This document shows positions 1,429-64,000 of a DNA stretch of 64,000 nucleotides, piece by piece. Numbering within the stretch: position 1 is the first letter of the stretch; each line of letters begins with the position of its first letter. This stretch comes from Escherichia phage rV5_ev158. The stretch lies in the sequence record LR694611; one strand, 5' to 3'. The notes below the pieces were generated by a model, which saw nothing but the letters and a program-made list of their open reading frames with translations, was not told where the DNA came from and ran no database searches. A program made the position numbers and the translations under genes.

Positions 1429-1983
1429 TTACTCCCCGCTGTCAATAGCAAGACTCATTGCAATACGGTATGCCTCTTCTAATGGTAAGAGTCTCCCCCA
1501 CACATCCCAACCGACATCAAACTGCCTGCCAAACAACTGCTGTGTGGTTCCGTGAGCATGACCGAACAGTTGGACCGATCCGTGAGGCTTTCTGTTCCAC
1601 TTTGCAAACTGGTAATGGCTCATACAGATCAAATTCTTGTTGTGGCGAAGCTCGTAATAATCTACAACCTCATGACCGAACTCTTTCATAATTCTGACAG
1701 TCGTCCTTGTGTCATGGTTACCACGAACAAGAATAATATGTCCGTTCAACATATTTAGAACATCTGGGAGCAATTTGTTAATATTCTTATCATTAGTGCA
1801 CGCAATATCTCCTAAGTGAAACACAGTGTCTGCAGGTGACACAACAGAGTTCCACTTGGTGATGATCCCCGCATTCATACTGTCAAGATTGTGATCATAC
1901 TGAGATCTGTGTTTTTGACATGAATCAAACTCCATGACCCGCTGGTGGAGAAAGTGTGTGTCGCTTGTTACAAAGTATTTCAT
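1429..1983 (-). CDS. calcineurin-like metallophosphoesterase (putative polynucleotide 3'-phosphatase)
   Basis: motifs SDTHF, HLGD, GNHD; start moved to internal ATG (MKYFVTSDTHF) with GAGGA RBS, in frame with ORF 1429..2088. Confidence 0.7.
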   Translation of the reverse strand: MKYFVTSDTHFLHQRVMEFDSCQKHRSQYDHNLDSMNAGIITKWNSVVSPADTVFHLGDIACTNDKNINKLLPDVLNMLNGHIILVRGNHDTRTTVRIMKEFGHEVVDYYELRHNKNLICMSHYQFAKWNRKPHGSVQLFGHAHGTTQQLFGRQFDVGWDVWGRLLPLEEAYRIAMSLAIDSGE

Positions 1984-1990
1984 ACATTCC

Positions 1991-2401
1991 TCATTTAAGT
2001 TTAATGCAGTTTTTAAGCTGGCGTTCCATACGATCCACAACCTTGTCTGGAACATCATGAATGCTTTTATTACCGTGGCGGTTTTCAACCACGATCACGG
2101 TATAACTATACCCATGACTGATTGCCATGTCAACATATTCCTGCACATGTTTTTCTTTTGTAAACGTATTACTTACCACGATACGGTCGTATCCCATACG
2201 CATCATATCTTCTACGTTATCTTTGCACCATTTTGCTGCGAGTGTTACTTTACTTGCATCCCAGTTGTAATTGCCGTCATCGTCATACCAGAACATGTCG
2301 TTCTCAAAATGTGGATACAGACCCTCTAAAGATAGCGCATTTGCCAGTGTTGATTTGCCAGACCCTGGTAGACCACGCACGATATATAGCATTTTAGACA
2401 T
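1991..2401 (-). CDS. P-loop polynucleotide kinase-like protein
   Basis: Walker A GLPGSGKST near N-terminus; start moved to ATG (MSKMLYIVRG) preceded by GGAGGG, in frame with ORF 1991..2557. Confidence 0.7.
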   Translation of the reverse strand: MSKMLYIVRGLPGSGKSTLANALSLEGLYPHFENDMFWYDDDGNYNWDASKVTLAAKWCKDNVEDMMRMGYDRIVVSNTFTKEKHVQEYVDMAISHGYSYTVIVVENRHGNKSIHDVPDKVVDRMERQLKNCIKLK

Positions 2402-2501
2402 AGTAACCCTCCGTTTTAATTTCAATGATAGTATACCTAACTGTTTTGTTAATTTCAAGTGTTGACACTGGGTTATTTGTGTGGCAGGATAAAGGGACAA
2501 A

Positions 2502-3437
2502 ATGACAAATGAGGAACGTATGATGAAGTATTTTAATGCAGACGACCTGGTTGACAAAGGTCTTGTAACCAGCAGATATTACCCAGATCTTGGGTTAAAG
2601 ATCTATAAATATGCCAGAAAAGTATTCTACAACAACTTATGGCATTTGTCTCCTCGATTACTGGAGTGCCGAGGCATTGTTGTCGGTAATGAAGGAAATG
2701 TTGTGGCATGGCCCTTCACAAAAGTGTTTAACTTGGGAGAAAACTCCACCAACCTGCCTGACAATAAGCTTGTGACGGCGGTAGAGAAAAAGAACGGATT
2801 CCTTGGTGTGGTGTCATCTCATAAAGGTGAACTATTGTTCTCAACAACCGGGTCTCTTGATTCCCCATATTGTAACCTTGCAAAGGAAACCATCCAGGAG
2901 CAATGCGGTAATTTAGATCTTATCAAGAAGGTTATGGGCAATGAAAACATGACATTCATGTTTGAAATTTGTCACCCTTCAGATCCGCATATTGTTCAGG
3001 AAGATCATGGCGCATATTTGATAGGTTGCAGATATAATGATTCTGGAATAATGCTACCAGAAGCCGCTTTAGATGGGATTGCCAAATACCTTGGTGCAAA
3101 ACGTCCTCACACTGTGCGTGAAATTCCGTTCAGCTATGCAAAAGAGTTAGCTGCAGAAACAAGAGGTGAAGGATATATGATTCGTAAGCCTTACTACCCT
3201 TATGATCTGCAGTTGAAGATCAAGTCTCCATACTATCTGGCACGAAAGGCCGTAATGAGGGGTAAAGCTTGGAAGATTTGGGATGATGATATCTTTAAAC
3301 GTGTTGACGAAGAGTTTTACGGCATGGTAAACTTCATTCGTAACAACTACACAGAGGATGTATGGAACTGCCTCCTGGAGCAGGAACGCCGTGAGATACT
3401 TGACTGCTATTTCCACAACGAGGACTATATGCAATGA
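2502..3437 (+). CDS. ATP-dependent RNA ligase-like nucleotidyltransferase
   Basis: ligase motifs I KKNGF (KxNG, no Arg), IV EGYMIRK, V LKIK; start may be the ATG ~18 nt downstream (MMKYF) with GAGGA RBS. Confidence 0.6.
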   Translation: MTNEERMMKYFNADDLVDKGLVTSRYYPDLGLKIYKYARKVFYNNLWHLSPRLLECRGIVVGNEGNVVAWPFTKVFNLGENSTNLPDNKLVTAVEKKNGFLGVVSSHKGELLFSTTGSLDSPYCNLAKETIQEQCGNLDLIKKVMGNENMTFMFEICHPSDPHIVQEDHGAYLIGCRYNDSGIMLPEAALDGIAKYLGAKRPHTVREIPFSYAKELAAETRGEGYMIRKPYYPYDLQLKIKSPYYLARKAVMRGKAWKIWDDDIFKRVDEEFYGMVNFIRNNYTEDVWNCLLEQERREILDCYFHNEDYMQ

Positions 3438-3784
3438 AGAAGTTGATTGTGTGGCTGGATGACTTGAGAGATCCGTCAAATTACGGGCTCCAAGACGCTG
3501 TTTGGCTAAAGAATTCCTCCGAGTTTATAGATTTTATTAACGATAATAGAAAGCTCTACAGACGCGTTTCTGAGTGGCACATGGACAACGACCTTGGAGA
3601 GTTGTTCGAAGGGTACGATTGCCTATCTATGTTGGAGGAAAAATTTGTATTTGGTAAGCCCCCTGTAGTTGACAACGTGAAGATTTTCGTGCATACTTCT
3701 AACCCATCAGCGGCTCGTAAATTCATGCTTGCAGCTGACTCGTTTAAAAAGTTTGGAATAGAGATTAAACAAAACATCTACTGA
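3434..3784 (+). CDS. hypothetical protein
   Basis: ATGA overlap with upstream gene; co-directional packed ORF. Confidence 0.5.
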   Translation: MKKLIVWLDDLRDPSNYGLQDAVWLKNSSEFIDFINDNRKLYRRVSEWHMDNDLGELFEGYDCLSMLEEKFVFGKPPVVDNVKIFVHTSNPSAARKFMLAADSFKKFGIEIKQNIY

Positions 3785-3792
3785 GGACACTT

Positions 3793-4554
3793 ATGCGACG
3801 ACTGATTATTATCTCCGGTGCTGGTTTGAGCGCTGAATCTGGTATTCCCACTTTCCGATCTGGTAGCACTGCAATGTGGGAGAATTTCAGCATCGATGAG
3901 GTGTGCAACATCCACACCTTTGCCAAGAACTACTACAAGGTGCATGACTTTTACAATGCACGTCGTGTAGCTCTAGGCGGTGTTGAGCCTAACCTTGCAC
4001 ATCTTCGGATCGCTGAGTGGTATTCCCGCTGGTCTGGTCGTGTGATCAACCTTACCACCAATGTAGATGATTTGCTGGAGCGTGCTGGTGTAAAACATGA
4101 AGATATTTTACATGTTCACGGGTATTTGCCAGAAATAGTCTATGAGGACGATGAAGGAAGTGACGTCATTAAGGACATTGGATACTCTGAGGTAGATGCA
4201 GGAAAGTATACCTGGGTTAAACCTAATGTGGTGTTCTTCGGAGAAGTAGCTCCGAAGTATACAGACATGTATGACCTGTTGACTTCTCTTACAAGCAATG
4301 ATATGGTTATCCTTGTAGGGTGTTCCAACACAGTTATCAATTTTAACTGGGAGCTATTCCCTGCCTGCAATAAGGGCACCAAACTGCTGATCGTTAACAA
4401 ATACGACTCACAGCATCTAGAGGAGAATGGCATTTCACGTAGTGATATTTACCAGTACGAGGATCGCGGCATCCCGGTTTGGTTTAACGGGGCGGTTGAC
4501 GCTTTCTCTGATAAAACATTCATTGAGACCGTAGAAAACTTTATGGAACTTTAA
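3793..4554 (+). CDS. Sir2-family (sirtuin-like) NAD-dependent enzyme
   Basis: GAGLSAESGIPTFR, TTNVDDLLERAG, HVHG and PNVVFFGE motifs typical of sirtuins; no zinc CxxC pair seen. Confidence 0.8.
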   Translation: MRRLIIISGAGLSAESGIPTFRSGSTAMWENFSIDEVCNIHTFAKNYYKVHDFYNARRVALGGVEPNLAHLRIAEWYSRWSGRVINLTTNVDDLLERAGVKHEDILHVHGYLPEIVYEDDEGSDVIKDIGYSEVDAGKYTWVKPNVVFFGEVAPKYTDMYDLLTSLTSNDMVILVGCSNTVINFNWELFPACNKGTKLLIVNKYDSQHLEENGISRSDIYQYEDRGIPVWFNGAVDAFSDKTFIETVENFMEL

Positions 4555-40052: not shown

Positions 40053-40748
40053 CACACAATCAGCTGCCCGGCTAAAGTGCTGGAAGCGCACCTATAACAC
40101 ATCTTTCAACTAAATTTCCTACCACCACAATCACTTACCTACCACACATGACTGTTTGCTTGTTTAGTGAGCAGTCATGCCTTGACATTCTTGCCTATCC
40201 TGATAAAATTAAGTTCTTCTCTTTTCTTTTACCGAGTAATTCGGGTTTTCTGTTCTCTTCGGTTTGAAGGGGTATGGAGATACACCTGAGTGAACAGGGT
40301 GAACAACCGAACCATTGGCTATGGCATTAGCATGGCGAAGCGGACGGGTGACGAAAGAGGGGCCGGAGGACACCAGTCACTGCCATATGATATATGGGTG
40401 ATAACCTGAAGAGTCTGAATAAGTGTTTAAGTACCAGTCAGAGGAAAAGGTGAATGGTAGCCGAAGGGGGATGGGGGGTTTCTTGTATCTTTAATTTGTA
40501 TATTATGTATACACTTGTAAACCAATCTCATCTGAATCTGTTTACCACACAAAGCGGATAGAGACAAATATCACCTATTAAACTTGAATTATTTATAGAA
40601 AATACCACAACACCACTTAAGTCTTTGATTTTACACACAAATCCTACAGATATTCAACCTCCATATTTAACATACTTGTAACATATTCCATACTCTACCT
40701 GTCTGATCAATTTCCCCAACTACATTCTCATATTTTCCCTGTCTGTAC

Positions 40749-40946
40749 TACCCCTGCCCCGCCGGGAGTCCCGTCATATCTGGCTTTCCAGCAAATATCA
40801 CACCCACAAATATCATTGCCTGAAGAGGGTTTCATCCCATAATACCTGCCTTACCTGAAGAGCGCTTCATACACCACGTAAATTTTTTAATTGACCTCCC
40901 CCTGCCCCGCCGGAGAGGTTGGCTTTTCCCACACAGACCTGAAGAG
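40749..40946. repeat. imperfect direct repeats, each starting CCCCTGCCCCGCCGG and ending CCTGAAGAG
   Basis: 9-mer CCTGAAGAG occurs five times between ~39755 and ~40946. Confidence 0.6.
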
Positions 40947-41522
40947 TCAGCCAGAAATATCTGAACAGGCCCAATTCTACCACGATTTTGACCTGACCTA
41001 CAGGGAGGCCCGAAGGGTCTAGCTTTCAGCTAGAGTCCTTGCAGGACCTACAGGAGCGCTGCCAGGCGGACGGAATGGGAATACTTCTCATTCTTATAAC
41101 AATTCTCAAATATCGAGACAGTGAGAGAAATTAATAGGCCAGGCCGTTCACACAGTGGCACAACATTTGCAACCTATTTTGGGTGGATGAATGAGAATAC
41201 CTATCATTGTGAGAACTGTTATCATTACGGGCAATTTAACATAATACCCATTATGCGCACCACCGGCGATACATACAGGGATTGATAACATGGGTTACTG
41301 TTTACGCACATAACAATTATATTTCTTACTATTTGTGTGGGATATAGTTAGCAGCCGATAGATTAGATATTAACCTGCAGACTTCTGACCGTCCAGACGT
41401 CTAAACGCCCACACACCAAGGATTATACATACACTCCTGAATGTAAACAGGGCCGCAAAAATGCTACCATACAAGCTTGTAAATTTTTCATGCAGCACTT
41501 GACAAAGAGGAGAAAAACTTGT

Positions 41523-41648
41523 CTGACATAATGTGACCTAACTGACACAACATGACACTTTTACACACCTATTAGTTTACACACTGGATTGTTTACATTC
41601 CTGATTGTTCACATGCTAACCATTTACATGATTGACTGTTTACACACC
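41523..41648. repeat. iteron-like short repeats: four TGACA-type at ~10 bp spacing, then five TGTTTACA-type at ~16 bp spacing
   Basis: read directly from sequence in ORF-free region. Confidence 0.5.
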
Positions 41649-41656
41649 GATAATCA

Positions 41657-41950
41657 GCCATGCCATTCGTTTGCATGAAAACAATTAACAAGATAACAAT
41701 CGACAAGTTAATAATCTTTCGCTGGCTATGCCAGGTGACTAGGTCACCCCTTCGGGCGTTCCTATGACATAATATAAAAGCAGGGCAACTATTAGCAGAT
41801 CTATAGTTGCCTTGCTTGTTATGTCATGATTAACTAAATACAAGGCAACTATGATCTGATTAATAGTTTGCAGACAAACTATCACGGGGGTGATGGTTAC
41901 TGCTTTTATATTATGTCGCGACTCCGTCGCGCCATGCCATTCGTTTGCAT
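41657..41950. repeat. composite dyad-symmetry element: 20-bp direct repeats flanking an 18-bp perfect inverted repeat and internal palindromes
   Basis: GCCATGCCATTCGTTTGCAT at ~41657 and ~41931; GACATAATATAAAAGCAG (41766-41783) inverted at 41901-41918; internal hairpins GGCAACTAT/ATAGTTGCC, GGTGAC-TAG-GTCACC, CGCGAC-TCC-GTCGCG. Confidence 0.6.
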
Positions 41951-42558
41951 AGTTGCCTTATTGTTACGAATAAAACAATTGCATTGTTAATGATTTCTTA
42001 TCTTTCTCTTAGTCATCTAATGATTCCAGTCAGTATAGTAATGTACAGTAAACATTAGACGACTAAAGATTTCTCTGTTTATGATAACTCATCTTGATAA
42101 TTTCGGACTGTTTACGAAAAATGTTGACACCTGAGCTGATTTATGTTATGCAGTTTACACGAATAATTATTTTATGCAGGTATTGACTATTCCGTTATTC
42201 TGTGGTTGGAATAAATACTTTGCAGGCTATAGAATGGCGTGCGTACGTGAATTCTGAGATCTGGCGGCTATAGTTATACTCGATTTTTCGCGTAGAACAC
42301 GCTTTCGATGCTGTGTAAGTGTATGACTTATAAAGATTTTTAGTTGTTGACAAGATATTGGAGATGTGCATCAGGTTAAAATTTGTGCAATAGCGGCATT
42401 ACGTGCACTTTTGGGAGAGAAAACGGGTAAAAATGGACTTGCTACCACACAATGAAAAATTATGCAATAGTTATTTTCCATGTATATTTGTACAGTATGT
42501 GGGATTGATGGCTAGTCAATTATTCCACTTGCCAGGTAGGGCCGTTTATGGTAGGAGA

Positions 42559-42590
42559 AGAGCAGACAAAAAGAAAGGGGCCTAAGCCCC
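42559..42590 (-). terminator. intrinsic terminator for the minus-strand block (GGGGC-TTAG-GCCCC then T-run on minus strand)
   Basis: hairpin ~20 nt beyond the stop of gene 42611..43030. Confidence 0.55.
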
Positions 42591-42610
42591 TTGATAATTC
42601 AGTTAAAAAA

Positions 42611-54857: not shown

Positions 54858-55089
54858 CCTCCTTTGGGAGCTCTAACTCTGGCATAGCCATATACGCCAC
54901 AACAGGGTTGTAATCAAAGTAGAAATGACCGTTAATTATCCCAGTTTTGTGCACATGGTCACCAGATCCTGCAAGAACAATCTCGCAAGCTCCGAAATCA
55001 ACCTTGCCATTCTCATCTGCCATGGCTACAATATACTTTCCTAGAGGCATGTTTTCAACGCCGTCTACAAATGTCCACCCTTTGTTCAT
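54844..55089 (-). CDS. hypothetical protein
   Basis: coupled minus-strand ORF. Confidence 0.45.
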   Translation of the reverse strand: MNKGWTFVDGVENMPLGKYIVAMADENGKVDFGACEIVLAGSGDHVHKTGIINGHFYFDYNPVVAYMAMPELELPKEGADV

Positions 55090-56153: not shown

Positions 56154-56693
56154 TCAACACTTTTTGTACTCCACCACGACAATATCTATGTCGAAAGTGG
56201 CAAGTTTAATAACGTCCTCTACGTGTTCCCACTTCAAACCGCCTATGCCGCACCCGATCTTAGGGATGTAGAATGGTAAAGTCGATCCGCTAAATACTTC
56301 ATTGACTAGCTCAAAGCCTTTCAGGATTGAGAAATACTCAGCATTAGGTCCTGGGTAGAACTGGGTATATAGATTGATTCCGTAGACAATACCTATCGGA
56401 GATAAGTGCTCCCATCGGGAGAACGCACCCAGTTTACTTAGGCAACCGTATCTAGTCTCTTTGTCGGCTGACAGTGCTTGAGGAAACTCACGGGCAATCT
56501 GTTTTGCTATACCCTTGCCCATTGTGTGGAAGCAGTTACAACCGTGGATCAGGTGACCAGCACCGCTCTTAAAAAGGGAGATTAAATCTCCCTCTACAGT
56601 ATCAATAATCACGGTAGGCCAGCTCCTCTTCCGCAATTTCAAAAAACTCAGTCCAGCACTGTGGCATATTGGAGTTACCGAAGTGGCTTTCAT
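56154..56693 (-). CDS. macro domain protein, TARG1/DarG-like ADP-ribosyl hydrolase (putative)
   Basis: GDLISLFKSGAGHLIHGCNCFHTMGKGIA and IPKIGCGIGGLKWEHV align with human TARG1 ([43 protein letters not shown]) as recalled; start may be the GTG at ~56612. Confidence 0.75.
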   Translation of the reverse strand: MKATSVTPICHSAGLSFLKLRKRSWPTVIIDTVEGDLISLFKSGAGHLIHGCNCFHTMGKGIAKQIAREFPQALSADKETRYGCLSKLGAFSRWEHLSPIGIVYGINLYTQFYPGPNAEYFSILKGFELVNEVFSGSTLPFYIPKIGCGIGGLKWEHVEDVIKLATFDIDIVVVEYKKC

Positions 56694-57027
56694 AGTAAAG
56701 GTTCTTACCGCTAGGAAGGTAGAAATCTGTTACCTCATAAAATCCACAATCGTCGCACTCACCTTCTTCAAACTTGGCCTTAACCTTAATACCGAGGAAG
56801 GTGAAAAGTTTATGGACATCTTCAGTTTCGAACTCCCAGGGAATGTTGTTTTCCGCATCGGTGTAGAACTGGATCAGCAGACCATTGTCCAGTTTACCAA
56901 AATACTCTGTGAAGTAACTTCCTTCCCAGAAATCTTTATGACAAATAATATCCATGCGTTTGCCCATAATAATGGTGTGAGCGTTTTGGGCATCGTCACG
57001 AATCAGTTTTGGCATTTCATAGATCAT
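56602..57027 (-). CDS. hypothetical protein
   Basis: stop overlaps the macro-domain gene. Confidence 0.5.
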   Translation of the reverse strand: MIYEMPKLIRDDAQNAHTIIMGKRMDIICHKDFWEGSYFTEYFGKLDNGLLIQFYTDAENNIPWEFETEDVHKLFTFLGIKVKAKFEEGECDDCGFYEVTDFYLPSGKNLYYESHFGNSNMPQCWTEFFEIAEEELAYRDY

Positions 57028-57806: not shown

Positions 57807-57867
57807 TTTCAGATCTCCTTATACAAAAATGCCCCACCCTTTCGGGCAGGGCTATGTTAACTAGGTG

Positions 57868-58491
57868 CTAAAAGTATTCGTAGAGGTATCCATCGGGGGC
57901 TGGAATTTTTTCATGAATGTAGTAATCAACACATATTCCGGTTTCTCTTCTACAAGAATTGTGGGATACCCATTCTTTAAGAACGTTTCCATTCATGTCC
58001 AGCCTTCTTACATTTTTACACCGTCTACCGCTGGTGCTTCTATGCAACAGAATATCCTCCGTCTGCTTGTCTTTATTTTCTCCCCAGGTAGTTAAACGGA
58101 TATTATCAAAAGAGTACCCTTTGAAATCATCTATCCTGTCACAAGAAGGCTTTTTCCTTTTGTCGTATCCGCTGGCTACCCACTGATCATACAACTCTTT
58201 GTAACCGTTCAGGTATAGCCACTCCTTAAACTCTTTTTTGGTGTAAGTCGGAGGAGGGTGGCCTCTTTGCTTGCTGTTGCACTTTTGAGCCTTGTACAGC
58301 ACGCGTATTACACCTTTTTCTGAAGAGTCGTGGGAAAATTGGTCAGCCTCCTTGCTGGCCTTCTTGCAACACTCTTTGCACTTATTAAGATGACCGTCAG
58401 ACATCTTTGGGTGTTTGTAGAACTCGGAGAGGTTTTTCACCTCTCCGCACTTTATGCACCTCTTACAATGCGTGGATTCTGCTTTTGCCAT
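57868..58491 (-). CDS. putative homing endonuclease-like protein (N-terminal zinc ribbon)
   Basis: CKRCIKCGEVKNLSEFYKH...CKEC N-terminus typical of phage mobile endonuclease-associated zinc ribbons; catalytic motif not securely identified. Confidence 0.4.
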   Translation of the reverse strand: MAKAESTHCKRCIKCGEVKNLSEFYKHPKMSDGHLNKCKECCKKASKEADQFSHDSSEKGVIRVLYKAQKCNSKQRGHPPPTYTKKEFKEWLYLNGYKELYDQWVASGYDKRKKPSCDRIDDFKGYSFDNIRLTTWGENKDKQTEDILLHRSTSGRRCKNVRRLDMNGNVLKEWVSHNSCRRETGICVDYYIHEKIPAPDGYLYEYF

Positions 58492-59734
58492 ATTGCAAAC
58501 CTACCGGAGCGAAAGGTATGTCATCACAGAAGTCATACTGCGCCGGATTCTGACCCATCGGGTCATCTTCCTCATCATTTACAGGAGGAGCGTCTACAGT
58601 GTTTTGCTGTGGAGCTGCTTCCTGTTTGGCAGCCTGAGGTTCTTGATGGTCAGTTGACCCAGCACCGTTCTTGATCCAATCGTACAACGGCTCAGCCAGA
58701 TTAGTCAAGACATCTTTTGCTTCTGCAGTAATTGCCGCTGCAAAATCATCAACTTTCGTTTTCTTGTCAATACGGCGACAAGCGTTCAACACCGCATTAC
58801 CGACACTGGCACCTACTTCATCTTCAGTTCGGTTGGTGGCTTGAGCATACTCTTTCTTAAGCTCAATGGTGACTACGTGCAGTGTTTTAGCCACACCTAG
58901 TGGGTCGTCTACCTTAAACCCGCGATCCAGGATGATTTGCAACGCATTGATGCTATGTCCCGTCTCCACACCAATAGGGTCGTAAGAGGATTTACGCTTG
59001 CCACCAGAGCCTTGAGTGCCGTTCTCTGCCTTAGGTGGATAGGCTTTGAAACCGCTGATAATGTTTCCGGTGTCTTTGTCAACAATGGCTGCAACACGAC
59101 CACCTACCACCAGGTCTTTAAGCTGCTCATCAGTAACAACCATGGCACCTTCGCCAATCTTGTGGTCATTAACAGTAACCACGTTGCCAACAATCTGAGT
59201 CACATCGCCATAGATGCGTAAAACGTCCTGATTGGCATTCTGCTGAGGTTTCTGCTTCTGGCCTTGTGATTGTGCACCTTGTTGCTGTTTTTGCTGCTGA
59301 GTCGCTGCTGGAGCCTCTCCTGCACCCAGCTTGACCATCTTAGCCAGTGAGCCTTTGTAATAGGTCTTACCGTTATGCTCGTTTGCCTTCAAAGGGATAT
59401 TTACGATCCATCCCGGCGTTACGGTTTCCCACTTGTCATCAATTTTAACAGAGACAGAGTCTTGATGACCAGGTTTAAGCAGCTTATCACCCATACTGAT
59501 CCAAACTTCTTCACCACCTTGAAGCAGGTTATCAGAGGAATCCAGTTCAGAAATCAGTAAAGAGATGGTGTGGCTGGATTCAATTTTCTTACCTTGCCAC
59601 ACAGTGGTTTTAATACCTGTTGTAGGATCAGCACCTTTGATAGGTTTGATGCTGACACGTTTAATCATGCCGTGAGCCAGTAAAACAGTTTCACGCGGAT
59701 TCATCGGGTTAGCGAATTGTTGAATAACGCTCAT
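58463..59734 (-). CDS. putative ssDNA-binding protein-like
   Basis: Gln-rich linker and acidic DFCDDIPF near the C-terminus resembling the SSB DDDIPF tip, but followed by 15 more residues. Confidence 0.4.
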   Translation of the reverse strand: MSVIQQFANPMNPRETVLLAHGMIKRVSIKPIKGADPTTGIKTTVWQGKKIESSHTISLLISELDSSDNLLQGGEEVWISMGDKLLKPGHQDSVSVKIDDKWETVTPGWIVNIPLKANEHNGKTYYKGSLAKMVKLGAGEAPAATQQQKQQQGAQSQGQKQKPQQNANQDVLRIYGDVTQIVGNVVTVNDHKIGEGAMVVTDEQLKDLVVGGRVAAIVDKDTGNIISGFKAYPPKAENGTQGSGGKRKSSYDPIGVETGHSINALQIILDRGFKVDDPLGVAKTLHVVTIELKKEYAQATNRTEDEVGASVGNAVLNACRRIDKKTKVDDFAAAITAEAKDVLTNLAEPLYDWIKNGAGSTDHQEPQAAKQEAAPQQNTVDAPPVNDEEDDPMGQNPAQYDFCDDIPFAPVGLQYGKSRIHAL

Positions 59735-62958: not shown

Positions 62959-64000
62959 TTAGTGACAATCACCCCAATTACGACCACACAGGTATTCACC
63001 TGTGATCTGGAACGGGACGCCCATCATTTTAGAAGCTTGCCAGAAGCAATGCACCACCATTTCACCCACAGGGCTCCAGATAAGTTCAAGCTTTCCGTCA
63101 TCGTTCAGGATAGGATCGTACACCGTGTTTCCGTCTCTGTCAACCACTTCGTTTCCGTCCTCATCCTTGCGTGCCTTTTTGTACTTATGACCGTCGAACA
63201 CATGAAGTTTGGCCTCCTGCTCTGCCTTAAATGCTTCCAGTTCTTCGATTGTGTCGAAGGTGTACACAGTCTTATACTTCGGTGTGTCAGGGACTTGAAG
63301 CTGATATTCGTCATGGTAATAGATAATACGACGAACACCTTCATCGTACCACCCACGCTTCACCATTTGATGGTGCATGAGTATCCCAACTAAGTCACAC
63401 AACGATGCGCCGCCATTTTGTTGGTATGCATTAAGTAAAGAGTGTTTAGATCGGGTCCAGATAGCATGACCATCAAAAGAGTAGATAAACTTCTTACCCG
63501 TTGCTTCCCAGAATTTCTCCAGATCTTCTTTACGCCCCTTAAGACCAGGGTTGGCATCCCAGAGTGCATCGATTACCCTTTGTCCCAACTCTGGAGAGAT
63601 GTCCAGCATATCTGCAACTTTATCTTTTTGTGCCCCATACATAACCCCATACGTGATAGGTTTACCGTCGTTACGAGACACCTCTCTACCTGCTACTTTT
63701 GTATATGCCTCAGCATTGTTTTGGTGTGCGTCCCCGTTACTTACAACATCGTAATACAGGCCGTTGTCGAACTCAAAGGCACCCCAAGCCCCGATAAGCT
63801 GCTCTAAGTTGGACCCGTCAATACCGATCTCAAAGTATCCTGGAGGAACACCCCACAGACTACGCATCTCTTTACCCATAACCACTTTAGGAGATGGTTT
63901 AGGCATGTTTGCACAAATACTGTGTTTCTGTCGGGAAGTGTTTGTTAATCCAGAACTTTTAGCAGGAAGCTTATGGTCAATCTTCAAACGTGGGTGATTA
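62959..64000 (-). CDS. family A DNA polymerase, C-terminal palm/fingers portion (gene runs off the window end)
   Basis: motif A IGIDGSNLEQL, motif B RNDGKPITYGVMYG, motif C YYHDEYQLQV; frame stays open to position 64000. Confidence 0.8.
   Translation of the reverse strand, partial: NHPRLKIDHKLPAKSSGLTNTSRQKHSICANMPKPSPKVVMGKEMRSLWGVPPGYFEIGIDGSNLEQLIGAWGAFEFDNGLYYDVVSNGDAHQNNAEAYTKVAGREVSRNDGKPITYGVMYGAQKDKVADMLDISPELGQRVIDALWDANPGLKGRKEDLEKFWEATGKKFIYSFDGHAIWTRSKHSLLNAYQQNGGASLCDLVGILMHHQMVKRGWYDEGVRRIIYYHDEYQLQVPDTPKYKTVYTFDTIEELEAFKAEQEAKLHVFDGHKYKKARKDEDGNEVVDRDGNTVYDPILNDDGKLELIWSPVGEMVVHCFWQASKMMGVPFQITGEYLCGRNWGDCH

Follow-up and report, generated by a model that had tools for sequence, protein, structure and literature searches.

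A stand-alone Gln-type macrodomain of the T4 Tk.4 (AdfM) family in phage rV5_ev158, a candidate eraser of DarT2-made ADP-ribose

The macrodomain gene and its product

The window analysed here, a stretch of 64,000 nucleotides from Escherichia phage rV5_ev158 (LR694611), carries on its minus strand, at positions 56154–56612, a gene of 152 codons plus the stop codon TGA (56154–56156), the product of which belongs to the T4 Tk.4/AdfM-type family of macrodomain proteins. The gene starts with a GTG (56610–56612, minus strand), and the macro gene and the end of the upstream gene (56602–57027, minus strand) share 11 nt. A Shine-Dalgarno-like GAGGAG (56623–56628, minus strand), read from the sequence and presumably functional, lies 10 nt upstream of the GTG.

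The first-pass annotation had placed the protein in an open reading frame of 179 aa at 56154–56693. This frame and its translation do exist, on the minus strand (the plus-strand frame is full of stops), but the actual gene is shorter. The first 27 codons (56613–56693, minus strand) fall inside the upstream gene, in another frame, and lie outside the macro gene; the 179-aa frame was rejected as the true product. Sequence matches also set in late, at residue 24 of the 179-aa translation for phrog_335 and at residues 28–33 for entries in the PDB. The shorter frame is annotated in the record LR694610.1, as a CDS of 152 aa that begins with the GTG at 56612. All 50 homologues in our alignment A2 begin at the GTG position, with an M-I-I/V N-terminus, and four Vequintavirus orthologues (loci L012–L015) have an ATG precisely at this codon. 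Because the annotated start, the GAGGAG, the homologue N-termini and the orthologue ATG all agree on the GTG at 56612, we take the product to be 152 residues long.

LR694610.1, the record of the Vequintavirus rV5_ev168, is 100% identical to the window over 3.5 kb around the macro gene and over the first 25 kb. Its label for the gene is 'T4-like protein with Macro domain, Poa1p_like family', and sister GenBank records have 'macro domain protein', 'phosphatase' or 'hypothetical protein'. The gene had been described as not annotated, which is incorrect given that GenBank already offers macro domain, Poa1p-like and 'phosphatase' for it. Window position 1 corresponds to position 63950 of LR694610.1 and window position 55000 to position 118948, which places a single-base indel somewhere in 25000–55000; both segments compared are 100% identical despite this indel between them. 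In addition, some 15–20 'Campylobacter phage' records (MG065644–MG065690; host Campylobacter jejuni) are 94–95% identical to the rV5-like region, and these are probably mislabelled or contaminating Vequintaviruses.

The macro gene belongs to a long run of small minus-strand genes that follows a T7-like DNA polymerase gene, and no Pfam families were found in its immediate neighbours. Consensus scans place a terminator-like hairpin (57831–57852, minus strand) upstream of this run, together with two sigma-70-like promoter matches (57393–57365 and 57178–57150, minus strand), all of which are offered as context only. Since the sigma-70 scan of the region returned 21 sites where 13.2 were expected, the promoter matches are weak evidence; they would be compatible with early transcription by the host RNA polymerase. 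Elsewhere in the region, a minus-strand gene for a 207-aa 'endonuclease VII' (57868–58491) encodes a Cys-rich N-terminus, yet the protein has no Pfam match. This gene and the end of another minus-strand gene (58463–59734) share 29 nt; the 423-aa product of the latter is Gln-rich and of low complexity in its centre and matches no family.

Fold and class

The protein is a stand-alone 152-aa macrodomain of the ALC1/TARG1-like class and a member of the phage family of T4 Tk.4 (AdfM). It matches Pfam Macro (PF01661) with 27.4 bits, above the gathering cutoff of 22, and phrog_335 with E=1.8e-58. The latter is the best match for both the rV5 protein and Tk.4, and it also contains PhiKZ gp104. A profile built from 34 family members and run against the macrodomains in the PDB matches one solved class only, the ALC1/TARG1-like one, with BT1257 (1.2e-17), Mycobacterium tuberculosis DarG (1.1e-16), SCO6735 (7.8e-16), TARG1 (1.6e-15), Thermus aquaticus DarG (6.5e-15) and, lowest in the class, Poa1p (2.2e-13). 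These members are the nearest structural and profile neighbours, and a clear gap separates them from the MacroD, viral and PARG classes. The AlphaFold (AF2) model, computed from an alignment of 51 sequences with the T4 row left out, has a pLDDT of 96.6 and a pTM of 0.91.

The TARG1/DarG-like fold and class proposed in the first-pass annotation are thus borne out by Pfam, PHROG, the PDB profile and AlphaFold, and the profile searches against macro-domain families that it called for returned macrodomain matches and no unrelated fold. Two signature segments had also been pointed out. The second, PxIGCGxxxLxWExV, is matched exactly by PKIGCGIGGLKWEHV and is common to TARG1; the first is present as GDLISLFKSGAGHLIHGCNCFHTMGKGIA, but its spacing had been given one residue short and reads I-x4-C, not I-x3-C.

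With respect to DarG, the similarity is confined to the macro part. The PADLOC DarG model is matched across the macrodomain only (E=2.3e-13), and the NCBIfam DarG model NF048014 gives 47 bits against an equivalog cutoff of 250, with positions 3–141 of 338 matched. Judged against these two models, the rV5 protein ends right after the macrodomain and the DarT-binding C-terminal domain is absent.

A Gln-type active site

The active site departs from that of DarG and TARG1 at the position of their catalytic Lys. Asn26 (codon at 56535–56537, minus strand) is invariant in the family and corresponds by alignment to Asn27 of SCO6735, the residue that mutagenesis identifies as the positioner of the catalytic-site Gln (PMC9411070). 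The first Gly-rich loop, which binds phosphate, is G32-K-G-I-A36 (56505–56519, minus strand); G34 and A36 are invariant, G32 nearly so, and the loop aligns with MGKGIA of DarG and MGAGIA of TARG1. Gln84 (codon CAG, 56361–56363, minus strand) lies in the motif N-L-Y-T-Q and takes the place of Lys80 in DarG, Lys84 in TARG1 and Gln85 in SCO6735, as placed by HMMER alignments to 5m3i, 5e3b, 2fg1 and 4j5r and by a MAFFT alignment. The rV5 segment LYTQFY thus faces PTKKHW in DarG and ITKKRA in TARG1. The second Gly-rich loop, which binds the substrate, is P117-K-I-G-C-G-I-G-G125 (56238–56264, minus strand); in the family, P117 and G120 never vary and I119, G122 and G125 hardly ever do, and G124 occupies the position of TARG1 Asp125.

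This replacement of the catalytic Lys is not decay, as judged from the alignments, because Gln84, Asn26 and the glycine loops are invariant across the family. Gln84 is kept in 52 of 52 family sequences, Tk.4 included, and in 79 of 80 homologues from viral contigs. G24, N26, G34, A36, N80, Q84, P117 and G120 are all invariant in 51 sequences that reach down to 33% identity, and the family signature H-G-C-N-C ... N-x-Y-T-Q ... P-x-I-G is complete in both the window protein and Tk.4. The sole exception among the 80 viral loci (L015:5001-5453, IMGVR_UViG_2974573495_000001) has Lys for Gln (NLYTKF), so that the residue of DarG and TARG1 stands in an otherwise Tk.4-type protein; this may be a sequencing error, or else nature's own test of whether the two residues are interchangeable.

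The same invariance bears on whether the protein acts by catalysis. It might instead protect by sequestering ADP-ribose-containing molecules or by blocking DarT directly, with no hydrolysis involved. Indeed, loss of catalysis in SCO6735 (Q85A), DarG (K80A) and TARG1 (K84A) does not abolish their inhibition of DarT in vitro (PMC9411070), and the rV5_ev168 record calls the product a 'high-affinity ADP-ribose binding module'. Against this, the invariant N26 and Q84 are the very residues that SCO6735 needs for catalysis; the DarT-binding C-terminal domain is absent, the match to the DarG models being confined to their macro part. A purely binding role is unlikely because the catalytic-site residues are invariant, and we regard it as highly improbable.

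The loop that follows Q84 (FYPGPNAE) has the length found in DarG and TARG1, as opposed to that of SCO6735 and BT1257, which have 5–6 extra residues. Since the Gln and Asn are present and the extended mobile loop of SCO6735/BT1257 is absent, the rV5/Tk.4 family is, on alignment, a sub-family apart, one that combines a Gln-type site, a loop of DarG/TARG1 length and a Poa1p-like N-terminal HxCNC.

Distribution, neighbours and selection

Homologues of the macro gene were found by tblastn in 2,707 of 50,697 phage records, including T4-like phages, where the gene adjoins vs. The dN/dS ratio among Vequintavirus orthologues is 0.08–0.21, and the gene is under purifying selection. Even so, several independent broken alleles occur in wild relatives, on contigs of 12.9–135.5 kb. 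In one (P0017), the N-terminus of the upstream gene is fused to the macro C-terminus at a common Q-F-Y; in another (P0020), an in-frame deletion between two W-E-H repeats has removed the catalytic core; in two more (P0036 and P0052), the macro gene is frameshifted. Repeated natural inactivation is the pattern expected of a conditionally useful accessory gene, and we therefore regard the macro gene as one.

The gene stands alone among small phage genes, as had been proposed beforehand. Clustering of 391 ORFs that neighbour family members at 49 dereplicated viral loci revealed no constant neighbour (toxin, DarT or NAD salvage), and no cluster occurs in more than nine of these loci. The annotated neighbours that recur comprise genes for replication/recombination and an Rnl1-type ligase. 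An ADP-ribosyltransferase gene was likewise not seen near the macro gene, either in the window or in the 49 loci. No NADAR (AdfN-type) partner was detected in the window by phmmer with an approximate E. coli YbiA query or by a motif regex, nor in the window or 80 related loci by jackhmmer with the phage NADAR from the locus described below (L009). Published reports place NADAR in Bas60-62 alone and not in rV5-like Vequintavirus.

The locus in question (L009:3390-10554; Logan SRR33375160, 59.6 kb) has a family member flanked by Thg1 and two genes away from NADAR, with Rnl2 ligase and PTH2 nearby, so that both classes of DNA-ADP-ribose eraser stand among RNA-repair genes. This macro-NADAR arrangement is a single case, absent from the 80 other loci.

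T5 is reported to be DarTG2-sensitive (10.1101/2025.11.20.689424). A search of the whole T5 genome for a member of the Tk.4/rV5-type family found none (best E 0.14), and the controls T4 and PhiKZ were both recovered (2.5e-49 and 1.8e-14). The correlation between absence and sensitivity has n=1.

Relation to characterised macrodomains

The closest characterised relative is Tk.4 of T4, to which the rV5 protein is 39% identical (63% positives, 152 of 155 residues aligned, E=6e-41). The two are alike in length (155 and 152 aa), in belonging to phrog_335, in the Gln at the position of the DarG Lys and in being encoded by a stand-alone early-region gene, and they have in common the motifs HGCNCFHTMG, NLYTQ-x-PGPN and P-x-IG-x-GIG. 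They differ in phage subfamily, that of T4 being Tevenvirinae, and in neighbourhood, tk.4 lying between tk.3 and vs. In the HIDEN-SEQ transposon screen, the only T4 gene to show a depletion specific to a DarTG2 host was tk.4; its clean deletion renders T4 more sensitive to DarTG2, and the authors named it adfM (anti-DarT factor, macrodomain; 10.1101/2025.11.20.689424). This evidence is genetic and comes from a preprint, the removal of ADP-ribose being deduced by its authors (10.1101/2025.11.20.689424).

Biochemical evidence is available for another protein called AdfM, gp104 of PhiKZ, which strips DarT2-made ADP-ribose off DNA in vitro and in vivo and protects the phage (Cell Reports 2026, PMC13309987); with a gp104 deletion mutant, DNA from infected cells carries more ADP-ribosylation (PMC13309987). 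Both gp104 and the rV5 protein are stand-alone macrodomains encoded by phages, and they fall into one structural class and one PHROG, but the two are only about 20% identical (E=1e-4). Moreover, gp104 is a close relative of DarG (E=9e-25 to 5m3i; 138 bits with the NCBIfam DarG model, against 47 for rV5), retains the catalytic Lys (FPTKDNW) and is imported into the phage nucleus, whereas the rV5 protein has Gln. Given the Lys and the DarG kinship of gp104 on the one hand and the Gln of Tk.4 and rV5 on the other, the two 'AdfM' proteins are therefore of different lineages within the class. The sequences suggest that the PhiKZ type was probably acquired independently of the Tk.4 type and that the common name is a coincidence.

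What a Gln-type site can do is known from SCO6735 of Streptomyces coelicolor, a stand-alone macrodomain with Gln85 that cleaves ADP-ribosylated thymidine in DNA faster than DarG or TARG1 does, leaves guanine-linked ADP-ribose untouched and rescues DarT toxicity (PMC9411070). Its Q85A variant is inactive and its N27S variant, in which the Asn holding the Gln is changed, nearly so; a water-mediated mechanism has been proposed (PMC9411070). The rV5 protein is like SCO6735 and BT1257 in having Gln at the catalytic-Lys position, with Q84 equivalent to Q85 and N26 to N27. It is unlike them in lacking the 5–6 residues by which their mobile loop is longer, in an identity of about 21–24% and in coming from a phage, not a bacterium; Val25 of SCO6735 is furthermore Gly in the rV5/Tk.4 family. 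The longer 'mobile loop' has been put forward as the source of the high DNA activity of SCO6735 (PMC9411070), and because it is missing in the rV5/Tk.4 family, the analogy is only partial.

Two other assignments were considered and rejected. DarG (5M3I from M. tuberculosis, 5M31/5M3E from T. aquaticus) has Lys80 in a P-T-K-K-H-W strand where rV5 has Gln84, and it comes with a C-terminal DarT-binding domain and an adjoining darT, both of which the rV5 macro gene lacks. The rV5 protein is thus not filed as DarG, on account of the catalytic residue, the domain architecture, the score of 47 bits against 250 and the absence of darT alongside. Human TARG1/OARD1, a member of the same class that also cleaves dT-ADPr DNA, has a second signature segment almost identical to that of rV5, but its Lys84/Asp125 dyad corresponds to Gln84/Gly124 and it has Ser where the rV5 family has Asn26. 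The absent dyad led us to reject this assignment as well.

Proposed function

We consider it reasonably likely, by analogy with Tk.4/AdfM, that the rV5 macro protein is a DNA ADP-ribose eraser that counters DarT2. The counter-defence idea of the first-pass annotation gains support from the experiments on its homologues, T4 Tk.4 (10.1101/2025.11.20.689424) and PhiKZ gp104 (PMC13309987), the substrate and role of which we infer for the rV5 protein. That annotation had counted absence of the catalytic Lys against itself. The Lys is indeed absent, its place being taken by Gln84, but the counter-defence reading still stands, because Tk.4 has the same Gln and the Gln-type SCO6735 cleaves thymidine-ADPr DNA.

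In the mechanism we envisage, the macro gene would be expressed along with its small neighbours in the run that follows the DNA polymerase gene, and the protein would bind the ADP-ribose that host DarT2 puts on thymidine of single-stranded phage DNA. Hydrolysis of the bond between ribose and base would then yield free ADP-ribose and replicable DNA, and the phage would escape from a DarTG2-type abortive defence. The catalytic scheme expected is that of the Gln-type SCO6735, not the Lys scheme of DarG and TARG1. Thus, Gln84, held by Asn26, would position the distal ribose, the chemistry would be done by a water molecule, and the loops 32-GKGIA-36 and 117-PKIGCGIGG-125 would clamp the diphosphate.

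At 39% identity to Tk.4, the substrate may nonetheless have shifted. Besides DNA, the substrates of ALC1/TARG1-like macrodomains include Glu/Asp-ADP-ribosylated proteins, O-acyl-ADP-ribose and ADP-ribose-1''-phosphate. The protein could accordingly be an eraser mainly of ADP-ribose on proteins (Glu/Asp-linked) or on RNA, not on DNA thymidine, which would counter other ADP-ribosyltransferase defences or toxins (such as the mRNA-modifying CmdT or protein-targeting transferases) or modulate ADP-ribosylation in the course of infection. The nearest relatives by Gln type and by class, SCO6735 and TARG1, do hydrolyse Glu/Asp-ADP-ribosylated proteins too (PMC9411070), and defences that ADP-ribosylate RNA, as well as macrodomains that reverse this, are documented (PMC11618068, PMC11833690). 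In addition, the rV5 family lies equally far from every characterised member of the class, and overall similarity is therefore no guide to specificity. Yet the sole known phenotype of a family member is DarTG2-specific, and the surveyed neighbourhoods, as noted, contain no ADP-ribosyltransferase gene. Weighing these points, we hold a preference for protein or RNA targets to be unlikely; a broad eraser of this kind is compatible with DNA activity as well.

The other substrates of the class raise the matter of metabolite housekeeping, in which the protein would, like Poa1p or OARD1, hydrolyse ADP-ribose-1''-phosphate or O-acetyl-ADP-ribose, for example as a product of the phage's SIR2 enzyme or RNA repair; this is the activity implied by the label 'phosphatase' in many GenBank records. 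The window does encode an NAD/RNA-repair cluster (1429–4554) from which such metabolites could come, made up of a metallophosphoesterase (1429–1983, minus strand), a Pnk-like kinase (1991–2401, minus strand), an Rnl1-type RNA ligase (2523–3437, plus strand) and a SIR2-family protein (3793–4554, plus strand; Pfam E=5.5e-27, phrog_2162), and RNA-ligase/kinase genes stand near family members in several other phages. Yeast Poa1p is among the best structural matches and has the N-terminal LIH-x-CNC in common with the rV5 protein. As for the residues probed in Poa1p, His23 (H23A mutant in the PDB) is present in the rV5 protein, Ser30 corresponds to Thr30 and Phe152 to Gly124.

Against a Poa1p-type function, however, stand Ser instead of Gln at position 84 of Poa1p and its place as the lowest-scoring class member against the family profile, and perhaps also the Gly at the position of Phe152; Poa1p also has long insertions that set it apart from the rV5 protein. 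The SIR2/RNA-repair cluster lies about 52 kb away from the macro gene. To our knowledge, T4-type RNA repair (Pnkp/Rnl1) yields no 2'-phosphate or Appr>p. T5 also carries a sirtuin gene, as the rV5 phage does, and it has this Sir2 without a macrodomain; conversely, T4 has Tk.4 and we know of no SIR2 gene in it. An obligate SIR2-macro pairing was rejected on these grounds, the T5 case being decisive. We therefore think a housekeeping role quite unlikely.

Returning to the eraser of DarT2-made ADP-ribose that we favour, a bolder version of it may be put forward tentatively. The Tk.4/rV5-type 'AdfM' could form a separate Gln-type eraser lineage, acquired independently of the Lys type, water-mediated and perhaps wider in its substrates (DNA, Glu/Asp-ADPr proteins and RNA), although we would sooner bet against this full combination than for it. 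If it were true, one small gene in about 5% of sequenced phages would disarm several ADP-ribosyltransferase-based defences.

Having set out these possibilities, we would note that the finding is confirmatory, since two groups have already demonstrated essentially the same idea for homologues in T4 and PhiKZ. The alignments and homology support regarding the rV5 macrodomain as a further member of the recently characterised AdfM kind. The main value lies in the indication, from sequence comparison, that the widespread Tk.4-type AdfM family would differ mechanistically from DarG; the name AdfM now covers two macrodomain lineages, a Lys type (PhiKZ) and a Gln type (T4 and rV5), and the Gln-type family (about 2,700 of 50,700 phage records) makes an easy and informative target for enzymology. 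DarTG2 is found in E. coli and other pathogens, and Vequintaviruses are used in therapy cocktails and in the biocontrol of O157:H7. Should the rV5 protein act as T4 AdfM does, these phages would carry a ready answer to DarTG2, which would help in the prediction of host range and in the choice or engineering of therapeutic phages.

Another feature of the window

Apart from the macro gene, the window contains about 2.5 kb without an annotated gene (40053–42610), at the place where a block of plus-strand genes meets a block of minus-strand genes. No ORF of at least 60 aa, tRNA, Rfam match or tandem repeat was found in it. The GC content of this gene-free region falls to 0.35–0.39, and a cluster of repeats occupies 41650–41970, with a perfect 20-nt direct repeat, GCCATGCCATTCGTTTGCAT, at 41657 and 41931, a perfect 18-nt inverted repeat at 41766–41783 and 41900–41917, and several copies of the arms AAGCAGGGCAACTAT / ATAGTTGCC. 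The region is possibly an origin or a regulatory/ncRNA region.
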